Shown here piece by piece: positions 26,146 to 63,669 of a stretch of 64,000 nucleotides of DNA (position 1 is the first letter of the stretch; each line of letters starts with the position of its first letter). The stretch comes from Callorhinchus milii (lineage: Eukaryota), in NCBI RefSeq assembly GCF_018977255.1, contig NW_024704771.1:3348001-3412000 (forward strand). The letters run 5' to 3'. Both the position numbers and the translations under genes were made by a program. Under the pieces are notes generated by a model. It saw only the letters and a program-made list of their open reading frames with translations, was not told where the DNA came from and made no database searches.

Positions 26146-26859
26146 CAACCTGTCACTACATGCAAATTTACCTGTTGCAATGCCGAAAAATCGCATGTGC
26201 CGCACGGAACAGTGAACAAGTACGAAAGACAAAGTTTTGATGATCAGGCAATGCAGATCGCCCAACTAAATGCAAATTAGTCCCAATGTCTTTCAGGAGA
26301 AGTACCAGAGGCTCCAATTCTGTGAAATGATAAAGTGGCATTGCCTCCAAATTTAATTTGAAGCCACAGACTTGGAATGGGGGAGGTCAGACAGAGCGAA
26401 TTGAGGTGTTTACGTTTACTTGATTGATATTACGGTTAAAAGGGCAATAAAATGATTTGAGGTGTTTACATCTGACCTAACGTTTACTTGAAATGTGATT
26501 GATAATACGGTTACAGCATTAATAATGGAGCTTATATTTTATTAAAACAGATCTATTTTGACATCTGTTTGTTATACTGTTCATTGTATAGTACATGTTT
26601 TCTGCGTATAAAGTATACTACTGTGCAATAAAAAAAATAATTTGGTCACTCAATCCATGACAGCCAATTGCACACAGCAGAGGCCCACAAACAGTCGTGG
26701 ATTGGGTGACCCTATTATTATTATTATTTTTTATATATCCAAGTGCTGGGAGCAGGGATGGATTGCCCTTGATGGGGTTCCAGGGCTATCGTAGGTTTGG
26801 CAGCCCCTCTAAGGGAAAGCAAAAGAAACCAATAAAATTGTGGGGAATTGGCAGAGTGC

Positions 26860-27165
26860 TCAGGGTGCTGTTGGGCCACCTCTTGGAAGCCTCAGAGCTG
26901 ATCTGGGGGCCAGGCTGGGAGCTGGGCTCGGGTCTGGGCTGGGGCCCATGGGTGCCATGCTATAGGATGATATCAGTGATATTCTTTCCGCATCTTGTGG
27001 CTCCATTCCCCGATTGCTGTCTGTGTCTTTTCTCCCAGTTTGTCCTGTCGCTGTGTTTCCATTCTCTGTTCCTCCGACTGTGGCTTCACTTTCAGTCTCA
27101 GTCACTTTGCAGGTAAAAATGAAACAAATTCCCAAGGTCACAATAAGCAGGAGTCCTCCACAGAG
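26860..27165 (-). pseudogene. Orphan CALHM-like exon 2 (TM4 plus low-complexity tail); its exon 1 appears destroyed
   Basis: ttcgcag acceptor then LCGGLLLIVTLGICFIFTCK.. open for 102 codons, near-identical to 44701-44363. The upstream intron is cut by an ERV at 27576; only an exon-1 stub survives at 32483. Confidence 0.72.
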
Positions 27166-27575
27166 CTGCGAAATGTGGGAGAAAAGACAAAGAAATTGTT
27201 TCTGGTCTTCTCACATTTTGAAATCCCATCATCAAGAATATCCAAACCAAACTACTTAGATTTTCACATAATAAAACCATAATCCTTGCATTTGATATAG
27301 CGCCTAATCACATCATTGAGACGTCCCAAAGCACTTCACAGGCTGTATTGCAAATTGGTTTGATTGTATTTTGTGGGTCAAATGCGGCAGCCAATTTGTG
27401 GACAGCAGTGTCGCCCAAATAGCCATGAAACGAATAACTGATTTTGTTCCTCAGATTATAAAGACAAGCCGAGAAGGGGTGGCGGGGAAAGAAAGACAAA
27501 GGAGACATTTAGGTCGAGGACAAGAGATGATGAGATCAGAGGTGTTGATGCTGCAGGACATAATCTGCTCCCTTC

Positions 27576-30500
27576 TGTTAGAAAAGGTTGATTTCAATAT
27601 AATTTGTAAACAATATGGGAATTAATACCCATATATGCAAGACGGTACAGGGATAGGAGAGAAAGAAACTGTTAGTCCTAATTAGAAACTGTTAACATTT
27701 TAAGAATTTGCAGAATGAGCCATCCTGGTTCTAAAAGGTCAACGGTCAGTCAGTTGTGATGGAGAGGGAAGACATAAAACAGACAGAGACCGGCCCCAGC
27801 CTTGGAAGGAAAAAAGTAAGTTATCCTGTGTTGAAGAATAATGTGTAAGCTGCTTTGTGTCAAAAGGGGCTGCTTATCTAGAAGCTATGGCTACAAGGAT
27901 GTGCGAGGGTCGAGTATGTTGGTTACGCGCTAAGATGCTTGATTGGAGAAGTGGGGAAGTAAGACAGCAGATCCAGCCAGACATAGAGCGCAGCCGAACC
28001 ATCGGAGAGATGGTGCTGAAACCATCGCAACTGACTGACTGACTGACTGCTCGAAAACTGGAAGTGTAAGTTCTGTTACTTGCAGTGGAAGTATTATTTT
28101 ACTTCTTTTGTGTGTGTTACTTTGGTTAATAAATCTCGATTACACCTTAATTGGATTGTCGGGTCATTATTTGCACCTCGGGATCGGAAATCCCAACACA
28201 TTGGTGACCACGAAGGGACCCGACAAGTGATAGAGATTATCGTCATCAGTAACTGAGAGAGGCCGGAGAGCCATAAGAATAAACTCGGGCGTTTAAGTTG
28301 AGCATAGACCAAGGAAGGTCTACCTGATCGGACTCAGGGAGTCATAAGCATTGACTCGGAGTCACAAGAAGAAAAACTCGGCTAAGTTTTGTGTTATTCA
28401 ATAAGACTCGGGGAGTCTTGGCTGAAGTATTGGTTCGGGCAAGACTTGTGCAAAAACGCAGAACAGAAGGCCGATCATTTAGAAATACAACATCCAGGGG
28501 TCACCAAAACCCTTTGAACAGGGAATGACGTGGATAGAGGAGGGAGAAATAAACACAGGAGGAAAGAGTTGCAGATCTTTAGTCAAGTACGCCATGTGGA
28601 GAGGATGTTTGGGGACCCAGAGGAGAATTAAAGAAATTAGAAAAAGCATCAGGGGAAAAAGAGGATGAATTAAAGGGAGAGAGCGAGAAGACGTGCAATG
28701 GAGAAAACTCTGTTTGAAGTAAAGGAGAATGAATTAAAGGGAGAAAGAGAAAGACGTGAAGTAGAAATGATCCAATTAAGACAGACATCAGAGGAAAAGA
28801 AAACGAATTAAAAGAAAGAAGCGAAATAGAAAAATCTTTCTTGGAAGGAAAGGAGCGTGAAGTGGCTCAATTGAAGCGAGCCTTGGAGGAGAAAGAGCGA
28901 ATAAGATAGAATTGTACGCGGAAAGGGAGAAATACGGGCCAGAAAGGGCTCAATGGAGGGAAGTGGAAGGAAATTATCAATATAAAATAAGAGAAATGGG
29001 GATCTTAATGGACAGCCAGCAGGGAGCGCTGAACTTAGCTAATGCCGAACAGTGAAGCAATGAAGAGAATACATGGCTGGTGAAGCAACTTATGGACAAA
29101 AATAAGGAGTTAAAAGAAAAGTTAGAAGATGCGAGGGGAGCAATCCGGGAATTTATAGAACAGACTAAAGGAAAGGAATGTGACCATCGACAATGTCAAA
29201 TAGAAATACAAGGATTGAAACAAAAGCTTAGGGGAAGACAGGTTATGGTAGAGGCTGTAACAGGAGGAAGAGATAGTTTAGAAGATAAAACCTCCCGATG
29301 CCAGGTTGACGAGGGATATGATCCCCCTCAGGTCTCCCTAATGACACGCATGTTGGAGTATGATGGCGACAGAGACGCTATAGCCAGACGCCGAAATCAC
29401 AGTAGGGCATTGAATAGCGGAGAATGTGCAGACTATGCTCGAGAGTTGGGACCGATCAACGGTAAATCCAAACCAACTGAGGTGAATATCCGATGGACGC
29501 TGTTAAAGGATTGTCATCCTGAATTGGAGGATGCAGACCTCAGGCGTATTCTGTTGGCTTCTCTCAGTACTGAGTTAAAGAATAAAATACCCTGTGTAAA
29601 TTTCGCCACGACCGTGCCATCCGCTGACTTTATGATTGCCGTCAAACAGGCACTGGGTGTAGGTACCTCCTGGGAACGTGTACACTGAATTGGGGAAAAC
29701 ATCACAGGTCAAGCATGAAAGTCCACGGGCATTCCATGAGCGTCTGGTGGAACTTTATTGTCCAACTCAGGGGAATAATCCAGATCAGACCGCAATCACA
29801 GACATGGAGGGATATAAAAACCAATTTCTCCTAAAATTGTTACTATCTATTAAAATGGCCCTAGGAGTATTGGTTAATCCGCGCACTGGTTGGAAGAAGT
29901 TATGGAGAGGACTGAGCAAGCCAGGATCACAACAGCCCCACTGGCATGTTGGAGGTTAAAAGAGAACTACAATCGGTCCATGAGGTAGAAGGACAGAGTC
30001 CCATGAATAACCCCGGAAAAGGGAGAAATTAGTGAGGACAGAATAGATCATATGGACGTAACAATCGCGGCGGAGGCCAAGGTTATTAGGGGCCAAGAAC
30101 GTGGACGCGGTCAAGGTGTCGGGTATAACTCAGGGGGGCATCCACAACCTGAAGCAGGTCAATGTTTTGCTTGAGGTCAGAACGGGCATTGGGCAAAAGA
30201 ATGGCCGAGTCAGACACAGGGCGGTAACCAATCGACAGAACAGTTACAGGCTCAGACAGATCAACTTCAGGATGTTGTGCAGAAAATGGGGGCACCAGAC
30301 AAATTACTGGGGGCCGCTCGATTGGCCAAGTGGCTGAAGTAAATTCCCCCGCCCCGTGTCCGCTATTATTAACCCTCCAGGAGGCGACTGGAGGTGGTCC
30401 TCAAATCAGTAAAACCTCCCGTTCCTCACCCTTAAAAGCTACTGTAAAACCACAGGCAGCTTTGGTCGGGGAATCTAGACAGGATCCTGTGTCACATACA

Positions 30501-31330
30501 CAGCGTCACAGAAAGGTGCTGCAGTTGGAGGAACAACTGAAATGTGAAAGAGAGATGTTGGGAGAAACTAAACAGGGATCTGAGAAGTTTAACTCAGAAC
30601 CAGATGAAGCAAGAAAAGAAATGTATAATAATAATAATAATCGTTGCACTTGATATAGCGCTTTTCACATGGGGAGGACGTCCCAAAGCGCTTCACAGAA
30701 CACACTGTAAAGTGAATTGACTGCAGTATATTTGTGGGCGAAACGCGGCAGCCAATTGCGCACAGCAATGTCCCACAGACAGTCGTGGATTGAAATGACC
30801 AATTCATGATTGATTTTTGTTTAGGGATTATTATCAGGCTTTTTGATAGTGTTCAACGAGAGACAATAAAAGCAAATGAATAATAATTAATAAAAATAAT
30901 AATATAACCTGGGCGTCAAATTTGGAAGAAAGATTGGGACAAATGGTTACTTCTGAATTTGAAAGATTACAGAAGGAGTTGAAAGCAATGAGACAACTGA
31001 TGGTGCAACATATAGATCCTTGTGTCTCACCGATATGCCTCCAGACCAAACAGGGAGATGACTTTTTGGCTAATCTGGAAGCCCTCAAACAGTTTAGTTT
31101 CCTTGATACTCGTGAGGAGTCCGGACGGGTCAAAATGCTGTTCTCTCAAATAAAGAGATTAACGAGAGTTGAGGGAGAGAGTAGGGTGGGTTCGTTGAAA
31201 AAAACACAAGAGAAAAGAAATTGATGCAGCGCAGCAACTTTAAACATCGCAGACTGCAGCCACCGACTCCGAGCAGTTTGAATTCACTGCCCGCTCGCGC
31301 TCTGGTTTGTGTAAACACTCACTGACCCAA
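27576..31330 (+). mobile_element. Defective ERV/LTR retroelement: 5' LTR, tRNA-Arg PBS, decayed gag, extra coiled-coil ORF; no pol or 3' LTR seen
   Basis: LTR 27576-28198 (tgtt...aaca, AATAAA 28128-28133); PBS tggtgaccacgaagggac at 28202-28219 (one mismatch to the tRNA-Arg PBS TGGCGACCACGAAGGGAC); capsid MHR-like QVKHESPRAFHERL near 29705; degenerate zinc knuckle CFA*GQNGHWAKEW near 30163. Confidence 0.82.
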
Positions 31331-31559
31331 CTCGGGACGTCCTCCCGACGTGAAAGGCGCTCTATAAATGGAATCTTGTTGTTGTTGTTGTTGTTGCTTC
31401 GAGCTGACCAGCACCGGCTGCTCAGAGAGGGTCAATAAACCCTTTGGTTTCCACGTGAAGCGGCTCTATTTTTGCAGCTAATGATCATGTTCGAGCTACA
31501 ATTGATTCCCTGGTAAACCTGTTAGTGCAAGTACCTTGAGGCAGTAGCACACATAGATC

Positions 31560-31850
31560 AAACTTCTACTCCACAAATATACAGTCTGTCCATGTCCTGT
31601 TGCAGTCTGCTACAGCCCTCCTCGCCATTTATTACTGTTCTAAGCTCTGTACCATTTGCAAACTTGGAAATTGTACTCCCTATACCCAAGTCCAGGTCAT
31701 TTATATAGACCAAAAAAGCGGTGGTCCTAATACTGTCCTTGGGGAACACAACTCAATACTTACTTCCAATCTGAGAAACAACCGTTCACCACCACTATCT
31801 GCTTTTTGTCTCCCACCCAGTTCGGTATCCATGCTGCGACTGACCCTTCA
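31560..31850 (-). mobile_element. CR1 LINE RT fragment
   Basis: FLVYINDLDLGIGSTISKFANGTEL...LQQDMDRL resembles the CR1 'INDLD..ISKFADDTKL' RT signature. Confidence 0.8.
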
Positions 31851-32424
31851 ATACTGTGGGCGTCAAGATTTCAATTTCCTCGCACTTGTAATTCAAATCC
31901 CTTCATGCCCTGACACCTCCCTACCTCTCCGACCTCTGCGGAACCCCAATCCCCAACCCACTGCCTTCACTCAACTGGTTCCGCCTTCTGCACATCCACG
32001 ATGCCCTCCATTCCACCATCGGTGGCCACGCTTTCAGCCACTTCACCCCGAAACTCTGTAACACTCTTCCTCTCTCCCTCCGCCTTGCCCCCTCCTTCCC
32101 CAACTTCAGGTCCCACCTGAAGACCTTCTCTTCGACCATGCCTACAGGTATCTCCCCCATCCCCCCAGCTCAGTGTTGAGCTCCGCCACTGTCAAGTACT
32201 CTGTGACGCTACCCTGCAAGACGGGTACTGAGGAAATGCAAGTTGTTGTGGGTGGGGTCAAACCCACACGAGCCTCCTTGAAGGGTTACATAAATGCACG
32301 GCGGTTGGGGAGTGCTGCAAATAGGAAGTTGAATGAGTCGCATAACTGACTGATGCAATCTTACGGCAAGATACGAGTGATAGCTGTAATTGGGTCGGGC
32401 GAGTGGGGGGGGAGCGGAGGAAGT

Positions 32425-32483
32425 GCAGCAGTTATTAAAATCTTTTGCGCGACTTTTCCTCGCAAACCTTCCAGAACTTCCAT
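32425..32483 (-). pseudogene. CALHM-like exon 1 stub (MEVLEGLRGKVAQKILITAA)
   Basis: Aligns with MEFLNGVGGKVTEKILITTG at 38594; its upstream sequence resumes at 33241 after an L2 insertion. Confidence 0.7.
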
Positions 32484-32491
32484 TGTGCTGC

Positions 32492-33240
32492 TGCAGGTCA
32501 TTCAGAACTCTGCAGCTCGTGTACTGTCCCGCACCAGGCTTCAGGACCACATCACTCCCACCCTCGCTCGCCTCCACTGGCTCCCCATCCCCCAGAGGAT
32601 TAATTTCAAGATCCTCATCCTCACCTATAGGGCCATCCACGGCCTCGCTCCCTCCTACCTCTCTGACCTACTATCCCCCTACCTACCTGCCCGTACCCTC
32701 CGTTCCTCCGGCTCCGGTCTGCTCCACGTCCCCCGCCCCAATCGCCCTACCATCGGTGGTCGGGCCTTCAGTCTCTCAGCCCCCAGGCTCTGGAACTCCA
32801 TCCCCCAGTGCCTTCGCCTTGCTTCCTCCCTCTCCTCCTTCAAGGCCGGTCTCAAAACCTTTCTCTTTGACCGAGCCTTCAGCTCCCCTCTCGACTCTCT
32901 ACCCTCTCCTCGCTCCCTCCCTTCCCTCCCCTCACCCTGACCATTTTCCCCCCTCCTCGCTCCCTCCCTTCCCTCCCCTCACCCTGACCATTTTCCCCCC
33001 TCCTCGCTCGCTCCCTCCCTTCCCTCCCCTCACCCTGACCATTTTCCCCCCTCCTCACTCCCTCCCTTCCCTCCCCTCACCCTGACCATTTCCCCCCTCC
33101 TCGCTCCCTCCCTTCCCTCCCCTCACCCTGACCATTTCCCCCCCTGCTCGGGTCCTGACCCAACTGTGCAGTGCCTTGGGACGTCCTCCTGACGTGAAAG
33201 GCGCTTTATAAATGGAATCTTGTTGTTGTTGTTGTTGTTG
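32492..33240 (+). mobile_element. Young 5'-truncated L2 LINE with an expanded about 40-bp 3' repeat
   Basis: Open ORF2 C-terminus LQVIQNSAARVLSRTRLQDHITPTLARLHWLP..; about 6 tandem units tcctcgctccctcccttccctcccctcaccctgaccatttccccc; (ttg)n tail. Confidence 0.9.
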
Positions 33241-33379
33241 CGCGCTTAGCATCACCATACACCAACCAGTGTTGACAAATTTACTTGACACCACATCAAA
33301 TACCATCGCTTTGAACAGACAAATCAGCTACGCTGTATCCCTTATACACCGGGCAGCGGACAGAATCACGATCATGTTT

Positions 33380-33970
33380 ACAACAACAACAAGATTCAAT
33401 TTATAGAGCGCCTTTCACGTCGGGAGGACGTCCCAAGGCGCTGGACAGTTGGGTCAGGACCCGAGCAGTGGGGGAAATGGTCAGGGTGAGGGGAGGGAAG
33501 GGAGGGGGCGAGGAGGGGGTAGAGAGTCGAGAGCGGAGCTGAAGGCTGAAGGTCAAAGAGAAAGGTCTTGAGACCGGCCTTGAAGGAGGAAAGGGAGGAA
33601 ACGGCGAAGGCACTGGGGGATAGAGTTCCAGAGCCTCGGGGCTGAGAGGCTGAAGGCCCGACCACCGATGGTAGGGCGGTTGGGGCGGGGGATGTGGAGC
33701 AGACCGGAGCCGGAGGAACGGAGGGTACGGGCAGGTAGGTAGGGGGACAGTAGGTCGGAGAGGTAGGAGGGAGCGAGGCCGTGAATGGCCTTGTAGGTGA
33801 GGATGAGGATCTTGAATTCGACCCTCTGGGGGATGGGGAGCCAGTGGAGGCGAGCGAGGGTGGGAGTGATGTGGTCGCGAAGCCTGGTGCGGGACAGTAC
33901 ACGTGCTGCAGAGTTCTGAATGACCTGCAGCTTGTGGAGGGAGGTGCCGGGAAGGCCGGCGAGGAGAGAG
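33380..33970 (-). mobile_element. Young 5'-truncated L2 LINE, inverted relative to 32492-33240
   Basis: Same ORF2 C-terminus and tail on the minus strand. Confidence 0.9.
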
Positions 33971-34329
33971 AGGTCCCATAGTTTACTCACTACTCCTCTT
34001 TCAGATTTAATGGTCACTTTCTTACTGGAGGTAAATTCCCTCGCCCTGGTACATGTAAAGTAGATTCAATAGTGATTATACCGGGAAGAGCACTGACAAC
34101 TCCCAACTATCTCAAAGTTACATCTTTCTTTTACATGTTTCTAACTCCGCTTCCCTTCGTCGCAGAGATAGCCCCCACCCTTCACAGGCTGCTTTGCACA
34201 GAGGGAGAGATATGGACAATTTCTGGGCAGCCTTCCACAGCCTGCTTGCTTTTCAGCCTTAAGTTAGGCGGGTGTTGAGGCTGCAGCCGTTTAATCAGAA
34301 GCTGACGTCAACCCGTCCAGCAAAGCTAC

Positions 34330-35185
34330 TGGATGAGGGCAAATTTCCTACAGCTAAATGTGAACAAGACTGAGGTCCTCCCGATCGGCTCACGCCAGCG
34401 CCTCAGCACCTCAGGCTCTGGCAGCGTCAACCTTCATGGTTGCACACTACAACTCACCAGCCATCAGGAACCCGGGTGTCTTGTTCGACCCTCAACTGTC
34501 TTTTCTCCCACACATTCAAGCCATGACCCGTCTGCCTTCCCTCACCTCCGTAACATCGCCCGACTCCGCCACTACCTCACCCCTCAGGCCACTGAAACTC
34601 TCGTTCATGCCCTCATCACCTCCAGGCTCGACTATGCAAACTCCCCGCTTGTCGGCCTTCCCAACTCCTCCCTCCACAGTCTGCAGATAATCCAGAACTC
34701 TGCCGCCCGTGTCCTCTCCCGCACCAAACTCCGTGACCCCATCTCCCCCACTCTCGCCCGTCTCAATTGGCTCCCTATCCTTCAGAGGATCCAATTCAAA
34801 AATCCTGGTCCTCACCCACAAAGCCCTCCATGGCCTCGCCCCACCCTACCTCTGCGACCTCCTAACCCCCAATAAATCCGCCCGCTCCCTCCGCTCAGCC
34901 GACTTCAGCTTGCTTCATGTCCCCCGACCCACCCGTCCCACGATTGGCAGGAGAGACTTCAGCCAATCTGCCCCCAACCTCTGGAACTCCGTCCACCAAT
35001 CACTCTGACCCGCCCCCTCCTTAGCCTCCTTTAAGTCCCGCCTCAAGACCCTCTTCTTCGACCATGCCATCAGTCACCCCCTTTCCCACCCCTCCCTCCT
35101 CCCCTTGACCCCAGCTCGGATCTGAAATGCTGTACACTGTCCAACGCCTCCCGTTAAAGGTGCTATACAAACGTAATCTTGTTGT
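34330..35185 (+). mobile_element. L2 LINE 3' fragment
   Basis: Encodes [34 protein letters not shown]. Confidence 0.85.
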
Positions 35186-35376
35186 TTGTGGGACACTGCT
35201 GTACCCAATTGGCTGCCACATTTCGCCCAAAATATACAATCAATTCACTTTACAGTATATTCTGTGAAGCGCTTTGAGGCGTCTCAAAGGCGTGAAAAGC
35301 GTTACGTCAAATGCAAGGATTATTATTATTATTGTGACTCCGTTTTCTGATTGCCTTCTGTGTCTTCACTCCCAGT

Positions 35377-38300
35377 TTATCCTTCCTCGGTGTTTCCAAT
35401 CTCTGTTCTTCCACTTGTGGCTTCAGTTTCTGTCTCAGTCATATTGATGCAACAACATTTTGAAGTAACCAACCAAGTGCATAAGGTTAGAATGAGCAGG
35501 AGTCCTCCAATGAGCTGCGAGGTGTGGGAGAAAAGACAAACAAATGTGATCATATCACAATGGTTTCCGGTCTTGTCACATTCGAAATTCCATCATCAAC
35601 AATATCCAAACCACTAAGATTTCCATGTAACAAAACTCTAATCCTTGCTCTTGTTGTAGCGCCTTATCACGTCATTGGGACGTCTCAAAGCACTTCACAG
35701 GCTATATTGCAAAGTGGGTTGACTGTGTATTTTGTGGGCCAAATGCGGCAGCCAATTTGTAGACAGCAGTGTCCCCCAAACAATCATGGAGTGCGTAACT
35801 GATTTTGATCCTCAGATTATAAAGACAAGCCGAGAAGGGTTGGTGGGGAAAGAAAGACAAAGGAGACATTTAGGTTGAGGACAAGAGAGGTGTACAACAG
35901 AGGTGTTGATGCTGCAGGACATAATCTGCTCTCTTCCGAGTTCTGACCACTAGTTCTGACAAAAGATCATCGACCATGTAATGTTATCTCACGTTCTTCT
36001 CTCTGTAGGTGCTGTCTGACCTGCTTAGTGTTCCCAACGACGTCTGTTCTTATTTCAGATTTCCAGCATCTGCAGGATTTTGCCTTTTATGAACTTTGAT
36101 ATTGTCTTCACAGTGAAATGTACAGGTAGTAACAGGTGAGCGGAGTGGGCAGATTGTCGATAGTGACAAAAAATATGAGGAGGCTGCCGGCAGGCAGTGA
36201 CATGTTGGCCGACTGCACTTACGATCATCTTTCCCTTCTGCACCCCATCCTTCCATGCCTCTACCACCCACCCCTGCCAAGCCAGGATTGTTCAGTACTT
36301 TGGGACGAATGTCCTCCCAAAGTGAAAGGCGCTGTAGAAAAGTAAATTTGTGGAATCCTTTAGTGTAGACACTGTAGACAACATTATAATGGCCAATCGT
36401 ATGGACGTATAAATGCTGCCTCCAAAAATTCTTTGACTAAAGCGAGAGCAACAGTTTATTAAAATCTTTTGTGACACTTTTCTGCACAAATCTTCCAGAA
36501 CTTCGATTGTGCTGCTGTGCACTTAGCATCAACATATACCAGTGCCTTAGCAACTGGAGATAAGATCATAATAGCCTACGAGCTGGTAAAATCAACTAAA
36601 AATGTCAAAATTTAGACAAATTTACAAAACAATCCACAAACCAATTGGAGCAAAACAAAATCTCTGGTTGAATGTCATCAAGACAGACAGAGGCTCTTCC
36701 AATTGTTTCCTATCTGTACCTTCTCACCTGAAGTTTCCAGGGTAATAATCCCTTAAAAAAATCATATAATCAATCCCCCGCTGTGTGTGGGACACTGCTG
36801 TGCACAATAGGCTGCTGCAGTCAATCCACTGTATGCTATAATCTGTGAAGCGATTTGAGATGTCTCAAGGACAAGATAAGGTGCTTTATCAATTGCAAGG
36901 ATTACAATAATTACTTGCAAGAGTCACTAAGACACGAACCTGAGGTCCCATCTGCCTGAGCAGGTGGACATTAAAGATTCCAGGTCGCTAGTGGAAAAGA
37001 GAAGGGAATGTCTCTCTTCTGGTATCCTGGCAAACAATGCCCCAAATAAAATTGGTCATAAAATTCACTTGAAGGCTCTGTGGGACATTGGCGGGTGCAA
37101 GTTGCCTGCCACGTTTTGACCACTTTACAGTTTAATCCTGTGATGCACTTCGAGGTGTCTCAATGACATAATAAGGCACTGTATCAAATTCAAGATCCTC
37201 ATCCTCACCTACAAGTCCATTCACGGCCTCGCTCCCTCCTACCTCTCTGACCTACTATCCCCCTACCTGCCTGCCCGTACCCTCCGTTCCTCTGGCTCCG
37301 GTCTGCTCCACATCCCCCGCTCCAACCGCCCTACCATCGGTGGCCGGGTCCTCAGCCTCTCAGCCCCTAGGCCCTCATTCAAGGCCGGTCTCAAGACCTC
37401 TCTCTTTGACCGTGACTTCAGCTCCTCTCTCGACTCTCTACCCCCTCCTCGCTCCCTCCCTTCCCTCCCCTCACCCTGACCATTTCCCCCACTGCTCGGG
37501 TCCTGACCCAACTGTACAGCACCTTGGTACATCCTCCCGACGTGAAAGGCACTCTATAAATGGAATCTTGTTGTTGTTGTTGTTGAAAGGATAATCATTA
37601 TAATTACTAGGAAATCCAGAGCACTAATATCTTCCACAACAGGCATCCAAATAACAAAATGATTACATTGGGGGAAACTAGTCCATAATAATAATCCTTG
37701 CATTTGATATAGCACCTTATCACATCTTGGAGATGTATCAAAGCACTTCACAGAATATACTACAAAGTGAATTGACCGTATATTTTGTGGGTGAATCTCA
37801 ACAGTCCATATCTCGAGGGCTGATCCTGTGATGTACAGTCAAATGAATTTGTATCATTTTTGCAAAACATTTTAATCTTACTCTCTAGAATTGCTTTCAT
37901 CTACACATCTAGAATTTTGCGGCAGATTACTTTGTGCTCAGAGTAACATACGACAACTTGCACTCATGCAACTCAAAATATTGAACCGTTCTGTCAGGGA
38001 GCAAGAAAGGAAAACTGATTTAGCACGAACAGATTTCAAGAGTGACTGGAGATAAGAATGGATTTTTGCCTCAGGAACGGCCAATATTTGGTGGTGCGTC
38101 AACTCATTCCTTCACAAAAGAACTGAATGAGCATCTGGTTAGGAAGATGAGTAAACAAAATTACTCACTTGCGATCCCAGCAGAACATTGACGGCTCGTC
38201 GGTCCGCAGTTTCTATCGTTTGATTAACCGACGGTTTGCATGGATTTCGACCATTGTTTTTGAGAAGCTGGTCAGTCCTGATATTCCCGGTGGAAAACAT

Positions 38301-38594
38301 GCAGATCGCATAATCACCGTCTACCAAAAGTAATGTCGCCCATATCGATGCAAGAAGAAGTGCTGTTGAAATGTGTTTCTTCGGATTATCTGAGCAGACT
38401 TTCTGTGATATCAAGTAAAAAAGGATCAGTGAAATCACAGGCACGAAAAAGAACATGAGACTGTAGAAACAATTATAATGCCCATCACACGGACATATAA
38501 ATGCTGCCTCCAAAAATTCTTTGAATAAAGTGAGACCAGTCGTTATTAAAATCTTTTCTGTGACTTTTCCTCCCACACCATTCAAAAATTCCAT
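35377..38594 (-). CDS. CALHM-like (FAM26) channel subunit, short form, about 187 aa if exon 38594-38169 splices to exon 35514-35377
   Basis: Exon 1 has FICPC, N..Y...FF..P, W..LLL.DGDY.IC, NPC and GSQ|GTGAGT (phase 0). Exon 2 follows ctcgcag: LIGGLLLILTLCTWLVTSKCCC..EEG*. The pairing is inferred; the intron contains another exon-1 relic. Confidence 0.7.
36375..36507 (-). pseudogene. CALHM-like exon 1 relic (start ATG changed to ATC, frameshift, 3' deletion)
   Basis: Nucleotide match to 38594-38465 (ataaatgctgcctccaaaaattctttga, ttataatg); truncated near 36370. Confidence 0.75.
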
Positions 38595-38669
38595 CGTGCC
38601 GCTGTGCATTTGGCATCAACACATATCAGTGCTTTAGCAACTGGGCATAAGACCACAATAGCACACGCT

Positions 38670-39433
38670 AAACTCCAACTGAATGGCAACAAGACCGAGG
38701 CCCTCCTGATAGGTTCGCGCCAGCGCCTCCGCAACTCAACCTCACTCAGCCAGTCAGGAACCCGGGCGTCTTGTTTGAGGCTTTCTCCACCACATCCGCG
38801 CCGTGACTGGCACTGCCTACCACCACCTCCGCAACATTGACAGACTCCGCCACTGCCTCGCCCCTCAGGCTGCCCAAACCCCCCGTGTACTCGTGCACAC
38901 GGGGGGTTTGGGCAGCCTGCTCGTGTACTCTCGCGCACCGGGCTCCGTGACCCCATCACTCGCACCCTCGCCCGACTCCACTGGCTCCCCATCCCCCAGA
39001 GGATCGAGTTCAAGATCCTCGTCCTCACCTTTAAGGCCATCCGTGGCCTCGCCCCCTCCTCCCTCTCTGACCTGCTGACTCCCTACGAGCCTGCCCGCTC
39101 CCTCCGTTCATCAGGCTCCGGTCTGCTCCATATCTCCTGCCCGACCCGCCCTACCATCGGTCACCGGGCTTTCAGCCTCTCTGCCCCCACACTCTGCAAC
39201 TCCATTCCACAGTCCCTTTGCCTCGCTTCCTCCTTTGCCTCCTTCAAGGCCGGTCTCAAGATACTCCTCTTCGATCGTGCCTTTGGTCTGCTTCCTACCT
39301 CTCTGCCTTCCCTCACCCTACACCACCCCTTCCCCCCAATGCTCGGGTCCTGACCCCTGACTGTCCAGCGCCTTGGGACGTCCTCCCGACATGAAAGGCG
39401 CTCTATAAATGCAAAATTGTTGTTGTTGTTGTT
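38670..39433 (+). mobile_element. L2 LINE 3' fragment inserted just upstream of CALHM-like exon 1
   Basis: Encodes LQLNGNKTEALLIGSRQRL and LHWLP-region motifs; (ttg)n tail; the paralogous site near 36570 is uninterrupted. Confidence 0.85.
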
Positions 39434-39518
39434 GCCTACAAGCTGATAAAATCAACCAAAAATGTCAAAACTTAGAAGGCAAATTTAAAAAAAAACAATA
39501 CGCAAACCAATTGGAGCA

Positions 39519-42030
39519 TGGTCGGATTTCCAATCCTGCATTCGTGTCGAATGACCAGACAATATTAAGTTTGTGGCTCACTTAGTTTATTCAAAAGATT
39601 CAGTACATAATAGAGAAAATACATAAAACGTATACTACCGTTGCCGGAGCAGTCAATGTGCTTTGGCCCTAAATCTTTATGTGCCTGGTTCCCTGGCAAG
39701 TCTACCGCCCTTTCAACTTTATACCTTTCTTATCTTATCCGTGACATGTTTCAAACCTCTTTGGTCATCCAATCAATGATCGGGTACGTAGACCACATAG
39801 GCCTTTTGTAAATAGGGGCCAAGGCTTGAGCAGCTTTCGTCAGGAACTGTGCGGTATTATCTATAAAAACAACTCGTACATCCTGTATATCCTGTTATCA
39901 GTGTGAGACAACAGGTACTTTTCACTCACACAAGGCCAGCGGTTAAACTCACTTCAGCACTTTATTTTTAACCACATCCTCGTATCTGAGAAAAACAACT
40001 TAAATCTGTAACAGATGATTCTTGATTGTGTAAGCCAGCTCAACAATTTAACAGATCTGCCTTGAAATCTTTCACTACGCATATCATATTCTAACAGCCC
40101 CACATTGAGAGTGAGAAAATAAGATTTTCGATACTCTCATTTTACATATGATTTATTGACTAGTCAGATTGCACCCGTGTGGCCCTCAATAGGAGCACAC
40201 ATGACGTAAAGGCACAATCATTGTAAATAAAATCATGGCGTCAACACGAACAACTCGGAGCAGTGAGCGTCCATTTGTTCACGCAAACCAGAGCGCGAGC
40301 GGGCAGTGAATTTAAACTGCTCACAGTCAGTGGCTACAGTCTGCGATGTTTAAAGTTGCTGCGCTGCACCGATTTCTTTTCTCTTGTGTTTCTTCAATGA
40401 ACCCACCCTACTCTCTCCCTCGACTCTCGTTATAATCTCTTTATTTGAGGGAACACCTCTTCATCCTTCTCACGTTTAATTCCATCGATTTATTTTCTTG
40501 CTTCATCTGGTTCTGAGTTAAACTTCTCAGATTCCTGTCCCAACATCTCTCTTTTACATTTCAGTTGTTCCTCCAACTGCAGCACCTTTTTGTGACGCTG
40601 TGTATGTGACACAGGATCATACGGCCAGAGCTGCCTGTGGTTTTACAGTCGATTTTAAGGGTAAGGAACGGGAGGTTTTACTGATTTGAGGACCACCTCC
40701 AGTCGCCTCCTGGAGGGTTAATAATGCAATCAATTATCCAATTTTTGATCCGTGGGTGACATAGAGTGAATATGGGGCAATTTGCAATTTGTTGAGCCCC
40801 TGGTTGCGGTCTCTCTGCTGGAGGAGCGGTTGGAGTTTACTTTGGCCGCTTGTCAGGTGGACCCTCCCCCGGTAACCTGTTTTGCGGTCAGTAAGGCTAC
40901 TAACTTTTCTAGTGTATCTTGCATTAGCTCGGGGGGTGGGGGGTGGGGGTTGGGGCCTGGCTGGGTTTGATCAGGGCGTTCCGGAGCCCAACGGCCATCT
41001 CTGCCAGAGTGGGATCAGGACATGTCGTTGGTATCCCGTCCGGCTCCTCCGTGTCGGAACCCAATCCCGTTCCCACGACCGCTTCCGCGGCCTCGGCCGG
41101 ATCCTCCCTGACCTCGTCGCCAATTTGGGTACAAGTTATGGGGACCTTCGACCTCACAAACCTCCTTCTTTATCTTTTGTTCACTTATCTTAACCTGTTT
41201 ATCGGCCTGGCAGAACTTTATTCATCAACTCTGCCCGAGGGGTGGAGGTGGAGACCGACAGGTCCAAAGCCGTGTTTTAGTTTTCTCGCTCAATTTATCC
41301 AGAAAGGTGCTGGGAAGCCCTGCGATGGTTCACGCCCTGAGCTGCATTGGGTTGTGATCAATCGGTAGAGGCTTGACTCAAACATCCCAATGGGTTCACC
41401 TTTATTCGGGCACACAGATAAACCTGGTCCATTACGTTCAGGTTATTCAGCCCCAGGATGTCATTAAACATTGCGTCCTTTGTGGCATTCGGTTGTTTAG
41501 ACGCTGCCTGTAGCTGCCACTTTACATTCAGGTTAATAAAACCCTCTTAAAATCATCATCAGATCACTCCGTATGAGAAGTTACGTAGTTATCCCAAGTA
41601 TTGTGCAATTCTAATGGACTGCAGCCGTCAGTAATCATAGCCATCTCTTGTACCAACACCTGACCCTCCCCATGATGAATGGGCTGCTCCTCTGTGTGTT
41701 CGCTAGTTATAGCGTCCGCTGGATTTCGCCATAGTTTTGGGTTACTACCTCCACTTGTTGTGGTGCATATCCCATGGCGGACTCCCAGTCCCCATCCAGC
41801 GAGTCCTCTTGAAAATGAGCAGCCTCGTCAATCGGATCATCCCCATTCACATCATCACCATCATCATCATCATCATCATTATTAGCGCCCGTGATATGTT
41901 TCATGGTCCTGGTCAACTTAAACAAAAAGCTGAATACGAAACTAACTTTATTCAATCTAAACGATACAGTTAAATGTCTTAAAAGTTTGATACTAAATTG
42001 ATTACATGTAAAAACCTATATTTTCTAACA
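39519..42030 (-). mobile_element. Defective LTR/ERV-like element
   Basis: The empty site ttggagcaaaacaaaa at 36645-36660 is split here (ttggagca | gcaaaacaaaa). A 3' LTR at 40096-39519 reads tgttaga...ggaaatccgacca on the minus strand, with AATAAA and a short G-rich tract before it. The other end also starts tgttaga at 42030. Internal 40275-40725 is homologous to 30365-31320. Confidence 0.7.
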
Positions 42031-42859
42031 GCAAAACAAAATCTCCCGTTGAAAATCATCAAGACAGAGGCTCCTCCACTTGCCTCCCATCAGCATTTCT
42101 GGCGTAATAATCCCTTCAAAAAATTATTTAATAATTTGGTCACTCAATACACCACTGTTTGTGGACACCGCTGAGCACAATTGGCTGCCGTGTTTCGCCC
42201 ACAAAATACAGTCAATCCCCTGTACGATATATTCTGTGAAGCACTTTGAGATGTTTCTAAGAAAAGATAAGGCGTGATATCAATTGCAAGGATTTTGAAT
42301 TTTTTGATTGATACTGTAACTACTCTTGTTTTGCCCACAAAATATACAGTCATTTCACTTTACATTATATCTGTGAAGCGCTTTGAGATGTCTCAACGAC
42401 GTGATAAGGTGCTTTATCAATTGCAAGGATTACAATAGTTACTTGCAAGAGTAACTAAGACATGAACCTGAGGTCCCATCTGCCTGATCAGGTGGACATT
42501 AAAGAGTCCAGGTCGCTAGTGGAAAAGAGAAGGGAATTTTTCTCTTCTGGTGTCCTGGCAAACAATGTCAAATAAAATTGGTCTTAAAATTCACTTGATG
42601 GCTCTGTGGGACATTGGCGGGTGCAAGTTGCCTGCCACGTTTTGACCACTTTACAGTTTAATCCTGTGATGCACTTCGAGGTGTCTCAATGACATGATAA
42701 GCACTGTATCAAATGAAAGGATAATTATTATTATTACAAGGAAATCCAGAGCACTAATATCTTCCACAACAGGCATCCAAATAACAAAAGGTTTACATTG
42801 GGGGAAACTAGTCCATTATAACAATCCTTGCATTTGATATAGCACCTCATCAAAATCGA

Positions 42860-43895
42860 GGGGATACGTTCAGCCACCTCTACACTGTCCACAGTCACCC
42901 CCACATCACCTCTCCCTCATAACACCCCCCACCCCCACACCACCCAATCCCCCCCTGTACTCCTTCGACCCTATCTCTCCCTCCTCCCTCTCTGCAGCTG
43001 TTCGCAAACTCAAACCCACCACCTGCTCCCTCGATCCCATCCCCACCTCTCTCCTCATCTCCCAGCTCCACCTTCTCCACCTGCCCTTGTCTGGTTCGAT
43101 TCCTGTCTCTCTCACCATCTCCACTTTGTTGCCTCTAATGGTTTCTCCTCCAGCCCCCGCACTGTCACATTTGGCGTCCCCCAGGGCTCTGTCCTTGGCC
43201 CTCTCCTCTTTAATATCTACATGCTCCCCCTCGGTGACATCATCCGCAGACATGGGGTCAACTTCCACATGTATGCGGATGACACCCAACTCTATCTTTC
43301 TGCCTCCACCCTCAACTCCAGGACCACTGCTGTCCTGACAGACTGCGGTCGGACATCAAGTCCTGGATGAGGGCAAATTTCCTACAGTTGAATGTGAACA
43401 AGACTGAGGCCCTCCTGATCGGCTCACGCCAGCGCCTCAGCACCTCAGGCTCTGGCAGCATCACCCTCCATGGTTGCTCACCACAACTCACCAGCCATCA
43501 GGAAACCGGGTGTCTTGTTCGACCCTCAACTGTCTTTTCTTCCCCACATTCAAGCCATGACCCACTCTGCCTTCCCTCACCTCCGTAACATCGCCCGACT
43601 CCGCCACTACCTCACCCCTCAGGCCGCTGAAACTCTTGTTCGTGCCTTCATCACCTCCAGGCTCGACTATGCAAGTCCATTCCCCAATCACTCCGCCTCA
43701 CCCCCTCCTTAGCCTCCTTTAATTATCCCCTCAAAACCCTCCTCTTCAACCATGCCATCGGTCACCCCGCTTCCCCTCCCCTCCCTTCTCCCACCTGACC
43801 CCAACTCGGGTCTGAATGCTGTACACTGTCCGGCGCCTTGGGACGTTCTCCCGACATGAAAGGCGCTATGCAAATGTAATCTTGTCGTTGCTGTT
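42860..43895 (+). mobile_element. L2 LINE fragment with internal deletions
   Basis: Encodes [29 protein letters not shown] and NFLQLNVNKTE. Confidence 0.88.
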
Positions 43896-44362
43896 ATCAC
43901 ATCTTCGAGATGACTCAAAGCGCTTCACAGAATATACTGCAAAGTGATTTAACTGTATGTTTTGTCAGTGAATCTGATTTCAACCCATCCAGCAAAGCTA
44001 CTGTTAACTACGATAGTCATCAAATCAAACAAACCTGATTAAAGGTAGGTTACATTCCAAACATATATAAAGATTAATTAAAACCTTACCTCAAATATAA
44101 TCTAACACCAGTGCTTTAGCAACTGGAGATAAGCAAAAGGAACCAATACAATTGTGGGGAATTGGCACAGTGCTCAGGGTGCTGCTGGGCCACAGCTTGG
44201 AGGCCTGAGAGCGAGTCTGTCACCCACCCTGAGGAGAAGCTCAGCCACACGACCTCACCCTGTGCACCAGAGCCCACACACCCCACCCACCACCCCCCAC
44301 CCCCCGAGCCCACACACCCCCCCCCACCACCACCCCACCCTGACACTGTGCCCCCAGCAGCT

Positions 44363-46501
44363 TTATTCCTCTTCTCCTTCATCACTCATTCGCTCAGCTA
44401 GGGGCCGGGTGGGGGCCGGGCTGGGGGCTGGGCTCGGGTCTGGGCTGGGGCCCATGGGTGCCACGCTTTGGGATGACTGATAACTAGGTTGTGCGTTCGA
44501 AAATAGTAACAGTGGCATTTTTTCCGCATCTTGTGGCTCCATTTCCCGATTGCTGCCAGTGTCTTCTCTCCCAGTTTGCACTGTCGCGGTGTTTCCATTC
44601 TCTGTTCCTCCGACTGTGGTTTCACTTTCAGTCTCAGTCACTTTGTAAATAAAAATGAAACAAATTCCCAAGGTCACAATAAGCAGGAGTCCTCCACAGA
44701 GCTGCGAAATGTGGGAGAAAAGACAAAGAAATTATTTCTGGTCTTGTCACATTTGAAATCCCATCATCAAGAATATCCAAACCAAACTACTTAGATTTTC
44801 ACATAATAAAACCATAATCCTTGCATTTGATATAGCGCCTAATCACATCATTGAGACGTCTTTTCACAGGCTATATTGCAAAGTGGGTTGACTGTGTATT
44901 TTGTGGGCCAAATGCGGCAGCCAATTTGTAGACAGCAGTGTCCCCCAAACAATCATGGAGTGCGTAACTGATTTTGATCCTCAGATTATAAAGACAAGCC
45001 GAGAAGGGTTGGTGGGGAAAGAAAGACAAAGGAGACATTTAGGTTGAGGACAAGAGATGTTGATGCTGCAGGACATAATCTGCTCTCTTCCAACATCCAC
45101 TAGTTCTGACAAAAGATCATCGACCATGTAATGTTATCTCACGTTCTTCTCTCTATAGATGCTGCCTGACCTGCTCAGTGTTCCCAACGATGTCTGTTCT
45201 TATTTCAGATTTCCAGCATCTGCAGGATTTTGCCTTTTATGAACTTTGATATTGTCTTCACAGGGAAATGTACAGGTAGTAACAGGTGAGCGGAGTGGGC
45301 AGATTGTCAATAGTGACAAAAAAAATGAGGAGGCTGCCGGCAGGCAGTGACATGTTGGCCGACTGCACTTACGATCATCTTTCCCTTCTGCACCCCATCC
45401 TTCCATGCCTCAACCACCCCCAGGTTGGTGCCAAGCCAGGATTGTTCAGTGCTTTGGGACGAATGTCCTCCCAAAGTGAAAGGCACTGTAGAAAAGCAAA
45501 TTTGTGGAGTCCTTTAGTGTAACGCTTAGCGCACTTGCTTTGATTCCTGGGATCTGGGTTCTATTCCTAGACAGGGTGAAATGCTAGACAAGTTTCCTTA
45601 CTCTATACATGTGTGTTTGCCTAGCAGCAAATAGGAATCCGGTTGTTAGTCGATTGGCAGATCACTTTTCCGGGGATAATAGTCCCTTAAAAAAATTCTT
45701 TAAAAAAATGAAGAAATGGGGTCATTAAATCCACGGATGTTTGTGGGACGCTGCTGTGTGCAATTGGCTAACAATTGTGGAATTGTGGGCATTTTGCCCA
45801 CAAAATATACAGTCATTTCACTTTACAGTATATCCTGCGAAGCACTTTGAGACCGGCACTCATACAGCTCAAAGTATAACAGTTGTGTCAGGGAGTAAGA
45901 AAGGAAAACTGATTTAACGTGAACAGATTTCAAGAGTGACTGGAGATAAGAATAAAATTTTCCTTAAGGAACGGGCAATACTTGCTGGTGTGTCAACTCA
46001 TTCCTTCGCTAAAACTACTGGCTGAGTATCTGGTTAGGTAATGTAAAGAACATTACTCACTTGCGATCCCAGCAGGGCATTGACGGCTCGTCGGTCTGTC
46101 GTTTCTATAGTTTGATTAGCCGGTGGTTTGCACGGATTTCGACCGTCGTTTTTGAGAGGCTGGTCAGTCCTGATCGTCCCGGTGGAAAACATACAAATCA
46201 CATAATCACCGTCTAGCAAAAGTAAAGTTGTCCATGTCAATACAAGGAGAGCTGTGGTGAAAATCTTTTTCTTGGAATATTCTTTTGGTGATGGGAGAAA
46301 AGAGATGATGATCAGTGAAATGGCAGGAAAGACAAAGAACGAGACACCGTAGGCAACATTAAATTGCTGATCACATGGACATATAAATCCTGTTTCTAGT
46401 ATTGCTTTCAATAAAGTTAGAGCTAAGGTTATGAAAACACTTTTTAGAATTTTCTTGTTCTGATGTGTTACGGTACCAAGAATTATATCCTTAATTTCCA
46501 T
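44363..46501 (-). CDS. CALHM-like (FAM26) channel subunit, 259 aa, intact two-exon ORF
   Basis: Exon 1 46501-46061 (MEIKD..FICPCDQQFNVAYGVSFFVFP..WTTLLLLDGDYVICM..NPCK..GSQ|GTGAGT); exon 2 44701-44363 (LCGGLLLIVTLGICFIFIYK plus an acidic/Pro-rich tail). The two-exon layout with the junction after SQ and four extracellular Cys are CALHM hallmarks. Confidence 0.82.
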
Positions 46502-48831
46502 GTGCTGCTGTGCACTTCGTTCAACATGAACCAGTGTTGATAGCAACTGGGGGTAAGATCATAATAACACTCACAAACTCCTCCCAACAAGCTGATAAAA
46601 TCAACCAAGAGATTTAGAAATATTTATAAAGAATGTACGGCACCAGTCTCAACCTATTCCTCCCTCCCTCCCATACCTGTAGTGCAGTGGTTAGAACAAG
46701 CGAGAGGACCGATTCCTGGGTATGGCAAAACCTTGGCCAACCTTCCTGACTCCACACATCTCTGTTTACCAAGCAGCAACAGCAACACTTTGCATTTATA
46801 CAGTGTATTCATTTAAATTTATATTTAACGTGTTATTGAGACATCTCAAATCACTTCTCAGTTGTGGATTGAGTGACCAATTTATTATATTGGTTAGTTA
46901 TTTTGATCCTGTTTGCGTCCGTTCAGATGGACACTAAAGAGCCCTCAACTCCATGGTTGGATGACTGTGTCCAGTTCCGAGCTTCCCCATTACAGGAAGG
47001 GTGTAGAAGCGCCGGAAAAAGTGCAGCGGGGATTGACTGGGTTGTTGCGGAGGGGAGAGGGGGTCTCGGATGTGAAGAAAAGACTCGAGAAGTTGTGGCT
47101 TGTTCTCCCTGAGCAGCCTGACAGATGATCATAGTTAACGTCTCCTCCGGAAGCGGAAAGATAAATACATTTTTAAGCTCTCCCGAAATTTGACTGTGAA
47201 CAACTTCTCGAAAGCAACACCTAAAGTTGCGAGCCGGCAGGGTAACAGGTGGAGAAGGTGATCAGGCGAACTGTGTGTGGGTTGACCCAGTTGACATCTC
47301 TTGAGGTGGAAGGTTGTGCGTTCAAGCGCAACCCCCCCCCCCCCCCCAAGACGCTTGAACTGACACAGGCTGATTACTCCAATACAGTGATGGAGATGTG
47401 TTACCTTCTCAGAGTTGCGAGCCTTCCGATGAGATGCTCAACCGAGATCCCGCCTGTGCACAACGACGACAGCAAGATTACATTTGTAAAGCACGTTTAC
47501 ATGTGCTTTGCAAATGTCGGGAGGACATCCCAAGGCGCTGGACAGCGTACAGCATTTCAGCCCCTATAATAGCCCTGGAACCCCATCAAATCCTTGAGAG
47601 GCTGAAGGCCCGGCCACCGATGGTAGGGCGGTTGGGGCGGGGGATGTGGAGCAGACCGGAGCCAGAGGAATGCAGGGTACGGGCAGGTAAGTAGGGGGAT
47701 AGTAGGTCGGAGAGGTAGGAGGGAGCGAGGCCGTGAATGGCCTTGTAGGTGAGGATGAGGATCTTGAAATCGATCCTCTGGGGGATGGGGAGCACGTTGA
47801 GCTGAAGAAAGTTGTCTCTCGTCCAGGACTCGAGATCCCGCCTGTGTACAACGACGACAGCAAGATTACATTGGTAAAGCAGCTCTCACGTCGGGAGGAC
47901 GTCCCAAGGCGCTGGACAGTGTACAGCATTTCAGACCCGAGCCCGGGTCAGGAGAGGGGAGGGATTTGATAAATTTAATATGTTTAATGTGTATATTCAG
48001 GACATTAAAGATCCCTCAGTGTATCCGCACCTCAATTGGAGTGACCTGGTCCTCGCCTTCAAAGCCCTCCACCACAACACCACCACCACCAATAATAACT
48101 TGCACTTATATAGCGCCCTCCACACAGGGTACCATCTCCAAGTGCTTGATAGTGGCGAAGCCTGACTCCGAGCCGGGGGTGGACTGGGGTCAGGGAGAGG
48201 TGGCCGTCAGCACGATCGAACAGGAAGGTTTTCGGGCAGGACGTGAAAAATGGGGGAGATGGGACAAGGCCGGATCGAGTGAGAGTGGTCCGGAGTTTCA
48301 GGGCATAGTGGCCGAAAGCGCGACCTTCAAGTGTGGGGCGGAGGGTGCGATGGGGCGAGCAAGAGGCCGGTCGGTGCCAGTCGAGCGGAGATGGCGGGTG
48401 GAGGATTGGGGAGTGAGGAGGTCTGAGGGTAGGGTGGTGCCAAAGAGTGAAAGGATTTGGGCACGGACTTGCTCCTCCCTACATCTGCGCTGTCCAAACC
48501 CGTTACCAACCTGTCCACTCCCTCTGCTCAGCGCGCTCCAGCCTGCTTCACGTCCCCCACCTTGCCCACCCCACCATTGGCAGGAGGGCGTTCAACCTCT
48601 CTGCCCCACCCTGTGGAACTCCAGCCCACAGTCCCTCCACCTCACCCTCTCTTGCCTCCTTCAAGTCCCGTCTCAAGACCCTCCTCTTCGACTGTGCCTT
48701 CGGTCACCCTCCTACCCCCATTCTCCCTGCCCTCAATCCTCCCTGATCCCAACCACCAGCTCGGGTGCAGATCCCTGACTGTTCAGGGCCTTGTGACGTC
48801 CTCCTGACCTGAATGGCGCCGTGTAAATGTC

Positions 48832-54256: not shown

Positions 54257-54390
54257 GGTCCTATTGCCACTCGCGCGCACAACGCTTGACGTCCTGTCCC
54301 GGGTTTGGCCGCAATTCCCTGTGTCCGGCTCCGGCAGTGAGTCTGGTCACCAGGGCAACAAGCCCGGTCTGTGGTCCCAACACAAGTACT

Positions 54391-55400: not shown

Positions 55401-55404
55401 AGTA

Positions 55405-63500: not shown

Positions 63501-63669
63501 GTCAGCCTCATCGCCGCTCCCTCATGCTCTCGGACCTTCTCCACACCCCCCACCCCCTCCACTACACACACACACACACACACGCTTAATATGATAACTA
63601 TAATAATCCTTGCATTTGATATCGCGCAGTATCGGAGTCCTAATGTAATCTAACATTAATATAATCGTG

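Follow-up and report, generated by a model that had tools for sequence, protein, structure and literature searches.

CALHM proteins form rings of 7-13 subunits around a large pore that passes ions or adenosine triphosphate (ATP). What sets the size of these rings is a matter on which the structure papers disagree, one tying it to the C-terminal helix and its linker (10.1101/857698) and another holding that stoichiometry is set mainly by contacts between transmembrane (TM) segments (PMC7439320). Zebrafish CALHM1 was found as 7- and 8-mers in which the helix was disordered and the pore size unchanged, the buried surface dropping from ~950 to ~615 Å2, or about one third (PMC9035704). A 64,000-nucleotide stretch of the Callorhinchus milii genome (RefSeq assembly GCF_018977255.1, contig NW_024704771.1, positions 3,348,001 to 3,412,000 of the forward strand; hereafter the window, in which all positions below are numbered) carries an array of CALHM-like genes whose two open members, genes A and B, encode subunits with no C-terminal helix at all. 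On balance, we think it somewhat probable that A and B form homo-oligomeric large-pore channels that are held together by membrane contacts alone.

The array consists of two open genes, two broken exon-1 fragments and one orphan exon 2, all on the minus strand. Exon 1 of gene A (46061..46501) is an open frame of 147 codons that matches Pfam Ca_hom_mod at E 2e-12 and encodes the N-terminal helix, TM1-TM3, the extracellular loop and the beginning of TM4. A phase 0, GT..AG intron (44702..46060) leads into exon 2 (44363..44701), which supplies TM4 and then a tail of ~90 residues, T/E/G-rich and then Pro-rich, without a C-terminal helix. The spliced gene (46501-46061 joined to 44701-44363) encodes 259 amino acids identical to XP_007908111.2, an "uncharacterized protein" of Callorhinchus milii, the public annotation predicting the same splice. 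Gene B has an open exon 1 of 142 codons (38169..38594, Pfam E 8e-8) and an exon 2 (35377..35514) that encodes TM4 and a short tail before a TAA stop, for a product of 187 amino acids when spliced (38594-38169 joined to 35514-35377). That TAA comes after 45 codons, ~25 residues behind TM4, and the tail described in the sequence-only reading, T/E/G-rich and then Pro-rich, is accordingly found in A but not in B, which stops before the Pro-rich part. This part is itself a brief simple-sequence repeat, with matches in repeat tracts at other places in the genome. The donors, both GT, are at 46060 and 38168; each of the exon-2 positions 44701, 35514 and 27165 is preceded by a pyrimidine-rich AG acceptor. 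Broken fragment C (36368..36507), within the intron of gene B, begins with ATC, is frameshifted and truncated, and differs by 20% from the 5' part of B exon 1; it breaks near 36368, where it is fused to A-like intron sequence (36367-35332 against 45521-44531, an 86% match). Fragment D (32421..32483) retains only ~21 matching codons and has repeats on both flanks. The orphan exon 2 (26860..27165) has 101 open codons and no intact exon 1 of its own, and its TM4 part is identical to that of A across 17 codons. All seven pieces that had been read as four exon-1 starts and three exon 2s are real homologs, but only two of the exon-1 starts are open. A DNA search of the genome returned the three exon-2 copies of the array as its sole full exon-2 matches, and no additional copies were found in the 20 kb to the left or the 30 kb to the right of the window.

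Evidence on splicing came from four sequencing runs (X1-X4), all aligned as contigs to 26701-46680 and three of them guessed to be RNA. An X1 contig matches 46476-46061 and its remaining 176 letters disagree with the intron, the break falling exactly at the donor of gene A; an X4 contig runs unbroken across the same donor. X2 and X3, which derive from separate studies, each have a contig whose match ends exactly at 38169, with 30 and 104 further letters, respectively, and in this way contigs of the probable RNA runs break exactly at both predicted donors. One X2 contig starts right at 35514 and another, from the intron, ends at 35485, and since the 30-letter overlaps are as expected if B exon 1 and the intron both lead into the exon at 35514, the acceptor of B would lie there. 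The acceptors of both genes are inferred, that of A from the public annotation and that of B from the contig overlaps. The TAA of gene B was confirmed in an independent X2 contig (0 other letters), and an X3 contig crosses the acceptor of the orphan exon (27165) unspliced. Gene A was uncovered in X3 and gene B only sparsely covered in X1, and nothing was concluded from either. Between the copies of the array are two retroelement-like insertions (~28200-31320 and 40276-41150) that share 258 and 181 bases at 88-91%. The first, within which is a 210-codon coiled-coil open reading frame (29056-29688; no Pfam match above the cut-off), is partly covered by X2 and X3 contigs, and the second partly by X1 contigs.

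That the genes are CALHM-like, as proposed from the letters, was borne out by the Pfam search, in which exon 1 of A (47.2 bits), exon 1 of B (32.1 bits) and full A (51.1 bits) all exceeded the curated Ca_hom_mod (PF14798) cut-off of 25 bits. The AlphaFold model, made for the gene A protein from a 60-sequence alignment that included helix-bearing relatives and without a control fold of such a relative, has helices at residues 3-38, 45-68, 77-105 and 132-177 and a predicted template modelling score of 0.60. Residues 2-171 of the model superimposed on residues 1-204 of CALHM5 (7d60) with Z 12.6 and a root-mean-square deviation of 3.2 over 156 aligned residues, and the top 26 fold matches were all CALHMs, the next fold following at Z 6.6. 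As modelled, then, the product of gene A is a protein with an N-terminal helix and four TM helices arranged as in CALHM, at an identity to the solved CALHMs of ~17-25%. A survey of 5805 homologs identified conserved positions, several of them needed for gating (PMC13183375; nine of its 13 positions were considered here), including F44, Y56, I61, P64 and W117 in CALHM2 numbering. Gene A has F39, Y51, F56 (Phe replacing Ile), P59 and W90 at these positions, and B has the same residues at the matching places. The motifs noticed at the outset (CPC, the Asp of LL.DG, the Cys after TM3, PC and SQ|.GG) are all present in both genes, and each has four extracellular Cys that are candidates for disulfides (C41, C43, C103 and C124 in A; C34, C36, C98 and C119 in B). 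The Asp of LL.DG in A, D97, aligns to Asp120 of chicken CALHM1, which is the position of human CALHM1 D121 (10.1101/857698; PMC10068325). Across the helix-less rows of the alignment, an acidic residue is kept there in 38 of 39 and the four Cys in 36 of 39.

The absence of a long C-terminal helix after TM4, as noted in the sequence-only reading, was upheld by the model and by propensity and profile scores. Nothing is ordered in the model of A past residue 177, where the predicted local distance difference test is ~50, and the best 28-residue window of helix propensity in its tail scored 0.59, a poor value against the 0.31-0.41 of 78 canonical tails. Because a profile of the canonical helix barely separated the divergent tails, a second one was derived from 20 relatives chosen by eye; it is partly circular, with left-out scores of at least 3.5 bits in 19 of the 20 and -6.3 in one, and sampled canonical helices reached only -0.5 to 8.2 bits on it. 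The tail of A scored -1.0 bit on this divergent-helix profile. A scan of 4985 frames with both profiles found no significant helix-coding exon in the window or the 20 kb downstream, and no alternative exon with a normal helix was seen in that range; the same two profiles recovered the helix exons of paralogs on contigs C3, C1, C159 and C9. The TM2-TM3 loop had also been called very short, and the segment is indeed ~25 residues shorter than canonical: the distance from CPC to the Trp of TM3 is 49 residues in A and 51 in B versus a median of 74 in 77 canonical CALHM5/6 proteins. In the alignment the median rose from 55 for the helix-less rows (39) to 67 for the helix-bearing relatives (21) and 73 for the canonical rows (seven), figures from rows that are related to one another and in one case mis-parsed, for which a p value is no fair test. 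As the TM2b/TM3a protrusion packs on the helix (PMC7439320), loss of the helix and shortening of the TM2-TM3 segment can be considered the departure of a single structural unit.

Genes A and B are not isolated curiosities, and belong to a divergent, fast-evolving CALHM group of jawed vertebrates. The same genome has two further helix-less genes (contigs C651 and C711). Its helix-bearing members are a divergent gene on C9 and genes on C3, C1 and C159, the one on C3 being canonical. The C9 gene has kept its helix; its TM2-TM3 segment is long and very rich in Cys, and its tail is a Gly/Ala repeat. Two genes are broken in the assembly, that on C159 by a frame change within exon 1, its helix exon being present, and a CALHM-like gene on C1405 by an in-frame TGA. 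The family was too divergent for word-based homolog searches, which yielded none of 101 candidates with an exon 1 query and only three of 8000 scored candidates with a 26-sequence alignment, and a profile search was used instead, producing 384 representatives at E 0.001 or better and 105 at 1e-10. The best matches in the ESM Atlas were clusters of ~201 amino acids with Ca_hom_mod. Among the 155 proteins examined, 80 were dropped because no TM4 could be recognised (many have the appearance of read-throughs from exon 1) and one for want of the TM3 motif. Helix profile scores of 2.3 bits or less were obtained for 51 of the 74 complete relatives (four being this genome's own or an allele), and the remainder comprised the 20 eye-picked proteins with a divergent helix, two that scored 6.7 and 10.7 bits and one with no tail. 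The 26 clusters that could be named (30 of 150 were looked up) came from chimaera, sharks, ray, teleosts, newts, Xenopus, turtle and snake, with no mammal or bird among them, and a sturgeon member was added by a separate search. Among the named members, those from sharks, ray, sturgeon, amphibians and turtle mostly have a divergent helix; a teleost clade and the chimaera genes are without it, as is one snake protein. The original description of the array as lineage-expanded therefore understates the range of the helix-less form, which recurs in a large teleost clade and in the snake protein. Some public proteins have two to four tandem CALHM matches; these are probably gene models that fuse neighbours in arrays, true concatenated subunits being the alternative.

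A tree was computed under LG+G4 for 71 rows over 173 columns, with CALHM1-4 not included and six rows dropped in parsing; it split CALHM5/6 from the remaining rows with support of 100/100. Within the remainder, this genome's four helix-less genes cluster together (98/92), 34 helix-less rows make up a second clade (100/99; nine named, all teleosts) and 11 mostly helix-bearing rows a third (99/97; five named, all sharks or rays), with no resolution at the base of the divergent group. Two candidate identities were discarded. The genes fall outside the CALHM5/6 clade and are not CALHM5, and a grouping with CALHM6 (two rows) was rejected by the approximately unbiased (AU) test (p 0.0003), long branches being in play. 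Groupings with the teleost helix-less clade (p 0.34) and with sharks and rays (p 0.30) were both compatible with the same test. A teleost helix-less query returned just the four helix-less genes of this genome (E 3e-13 to 3e-7), and a ray query against it returned one helix-less gene, weakly; judged by such sequence comparisons, the teleost and chimaera sets lean towards one old loss of the helix.

The mechanism we envisage is that A and B are four-TM CALHM subunits stripped of the cytoplasmic scaffold, that is, of the C-terminal helix and most of the TM2b/TM3a protrusion, which would nonetheless assemble into rings with a large pore, open to ions and perhaps to ATP. In such rings TM2-TM4' and TM1-TM3 contacts would be all that joins the subunits, and gating would fall to a hinge of the N-terminal helix and TM1 with a CALHM1-type Asp (D97 in A); the rings may be less stable and of less fixed size than those of other CALHMs. 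Oligomer formation, conduction, substrate and ring size are all features that we infer for A and B. Several observations weigh against this proposal. The disordered-helix structures of zebrafish CALHM1 (PMC9035704) still contain the helix in the chain, and tolerance of its deletion is not demonstrated there. The helix has been described as the family signature, with ring size tied to its linker (10.1101/857698), and for lack of it A and B are filed as a CALHM variant rather than as standard members. Of the interface quartet conserved in the solved CALHMs (TM2 Pro, TM3 Pro, TM3 Trp and TM4 Trp; PMC7439320), only the TM2 Pro and TM3 Trp remain in A and B; the TM3 Pro and TM4 Trp are absent, the latter from all 64 divergent rows. 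The RNA status of the contig runs is a guess. Finally, the ratio of replacement to synonymous substitution rates (dN/dS) between A and B was 0.65 in exon 1 (p 0.07), 0.82 in TM1-TM3 and 0.7-1.3 in exon 2, values that offer little sign of constraint within the cluster.

Whether dN/dS is near 1 depended on the comparison: against the C651 and C711 paralogs it was 0.26-0.45 (with dS above 1), but between A and B themselves the ratio approached 1 in TM1-TM3 and exon 2. The extracellular loop was the exception in the latter comparison, with a dN/dS of 0.26 (p 0.004). Divergence between A and B is also distributed as a mosaic, with 40 of 165 compared sites differing in exon 2 versus 18 of 345 in the preceding intron, and the 5' part of exon 1 being 30% different versus 13% for its 3' part and the start of the intron. 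To judge from these patterns, the mosaic points to conversion or recombination that spared the parts coding for TM1, TM2 and TM4. Positive selection was considered and is not claimed, as the divergent exon parts have changed at synonymous sites just as much as at replacement sites, which fits intron conversion and is no proof of such selection. The supposition that the cluster turns over by birth and death was supported by the mosaic and by the presence of two open genes, two broken fragments and one orphan exon within 20 kb.

The alternative that survives best, though we regard it as unlikely, is that A and B are non- or weakly conducting subunits that co-assemble with the full-length CALHMs of the genome (those on C3, C1, C9 and C159) and, being unable to join the helix-helix lattice, alter the size of the ring or silence it. 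The helix and two of the four interface residues are missing, full-length partner genes are at hand in the same genome, and CALHM1/3 and CALHM2/4 heteromers are known from the literature. However, the pore-gating residues and the Asp are conserved across the helix-less rows, and at ~17-25% identity to the solved CALHMs a shared interface is doubtful. A further possibility, to which we give slightly less credence, is that the family is real and the local cluster is decaying, with B a transcribed pseudogene in the making and A under relaxed selection. The broken fragments, the orphan exon, the stop in the tail of B and the dN/dS near 1 for TM1-TM3 and exon 2 are all in keeping with decay, as is the loss in A and B of the TM3 Pro that the C651 and C711 genes keep. 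Yet both frames have stayed open through TM4 despite a dS of 0.45 and in-frame indels, the stop in B sits in the last exon, behind TM4, three of the four B exon-1 variants among those listed are synonymous, and the dN/dS of the extracellular loop is low.

It seems very unlikely that A and B are membrane proteins with a new, non-channel job, such as an adaptor or a surface ligand for cell contact, in which the CALHM fold is a scaffold for a free disordered tail. The low-complexity tails of varying length in the helix-less relatives would suit such a role, as would the far greater A-B divergence of the 5' part of exon 1 and of exon 2 than of the adjacent introns, but channel-specific residues are retained, and the tails have no common motif and are merely 10-30 residues long in many relatives. 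Scarcely credible is the idea that the helix is not truly lost and comes from an alternative exon or frame. All three exon-2 copies do have a +1 frame that runs without a stop for at least 40 codons after TM4 (27101-26976, and within 44363-44701 and 35332-35514), that of the orphan copy scored 8.0 bits on the divergent-helix profile (shuffle p 0.011), and the ratio of replacement to synonymous differences (pN/pS) versus B was 0.38-0.46 in the +1 frame as opposed to 1.4-2.0 in the annotated frame (Fisher p 0.02-0.05), but this was a post hoc test of one of nine frames, the +1 frames of A and B scored 0.1 and 2.5 bits (p 0.71 and 0.21), an in-frame TGA precedes the +1 frame, no usable acceptor was seen and no route to its translation was found, the contigs put the B acceptor at 35514, and neither helix profile, as noted, gave a significant match across the window and the 20 kb downstream of it. 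The resemblance in the +1 frame may be, at most, a relic of a frameshifting loss of the helix.

Beyond the preferred reading of A and B as membrane-contact channels lies a broader proposal that we advance only tentatively: an ancient seventh CALHM subfamily, dating from the jawed-vertebrate ancestor and absent in mammals, whose helix-less branch, retained by chimaeras and greatly expanded in teleosts, would be a cytoplasmic-domain-free, large-pore and fast-evolving effector of immune or epithelial ATP release. The immune link in the sequence-only reading was an analogy with CALHM6 alone, and it gained no support from promoter motifs. CALHM6 (FAM26F/INAM) is interferon-inducible and has STAT1/ISRE sites in its promoter (PMC10068325), and no consensus for the interferon-stimulated response element (ISRE), gamma-activated sequence (GAS), Ets-IRF composite element (EICE) or NF-kB was present within 1.5 kb before either start codon, the distance being counted from the ATG and not from the transcription start. 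Birth-and-death turnover and a TRIM-type gene 23 kb away (1496-4228, minus strand; a RING and B-box exon and a PRY-SPRY exon) fit an immune role loosely. Besides the TRIM gene, a Pfam scan of 52 neighbouring open reading frames gave no clear immune gene cluster, returning only tubulin, one immunoglobulin (Ig) V-set exon, reticulon and reverse transcriptase RNase H; the tubulin gene is directly to the left of the window and the Ig V-set exon ~27 kb to its right. Elsewhere in the window, an exon at 52172-52846 (minus strand) has the look of a Josephin domain, with no Pfam match, and resembles JOSD2, and a DUF3754 exon at 62993-63589 (plus strand) is presumably TMEM143. The human genes for both are on 19q13, where we know of no CALHM gene. 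Six tRNA-Ala/Val calls (6824, 16126, 57097, 58050, 59052 and 63672) are probably short interspersed elements, because four of them head a 330-base repeat of 91-95% identity, and a long array of a 21-base unit at 54184-55490 has open frames on both strands.

How, then, do A and B stand in relation to the CALHMs already described? The CALHM4/5/6 (FAM26D/E/F) proteins share with them Ca_hom_mod, the four-TM fold (Z 12.6 for CALHM5 and 12.0 for CALHM4) and, in A, the F39/Y51/P59/W residues and four Cys, and the exon 1 of the canonical gene on C3 likewise ends at SQ in phase 0. They differ in that A and B are without the C-terminal helix, ~25 residues of the TM2-TM3 segment and the TM4 Trp, and in that A and B fall outside the CALHM5/6 clade (100/100) in a tree that did not include CALHM4. 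The Asp at the D121 position is a similarity to CALHM1 that is absent from the seven CALHM5/6 rows of the tree, and CALHM1 and CALHM3 match the fold of the A model at Z 10-11.6, with CALHM1 rings known in which the helix is disordered. From these two they are set apart by an identity of 15-20% and by having no helix, in a comparison made by fold and residues, CALHM1-3 being outside the tree. No paper on the divergent group or on natural helix-less CALHMs was among the matches listed by a literature search that reached few subscription journals, and the tree of PMC13183375 covers CALHM1-6, although its set of 5805 homologs may include proteins of the divergent group. The helix-less group, which is common in bony fish too, is apparently new to the literature, its proteins being already in databases under automatic names. 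With natural, apparently spliced subunits that have no helix, and sisters that bear one, the group provides test cases for the assembly of CALHM rings, for subunit number and for the passage of ATP. By both profile search and tree, the closest relatives of A and B are divergent CALHM-like proteins from fishes, amphibians and reptiles that lack a proper name and go by such public labels as "uncharacterized", "FAM26D-like", "CALHM2/5/6-like" and "si:dkeyp-122a9.2", and together they look like a large unrecognised channel family in fishes, farmed species included, that has been filed under "uncharacterized" or "CALHM6-like".

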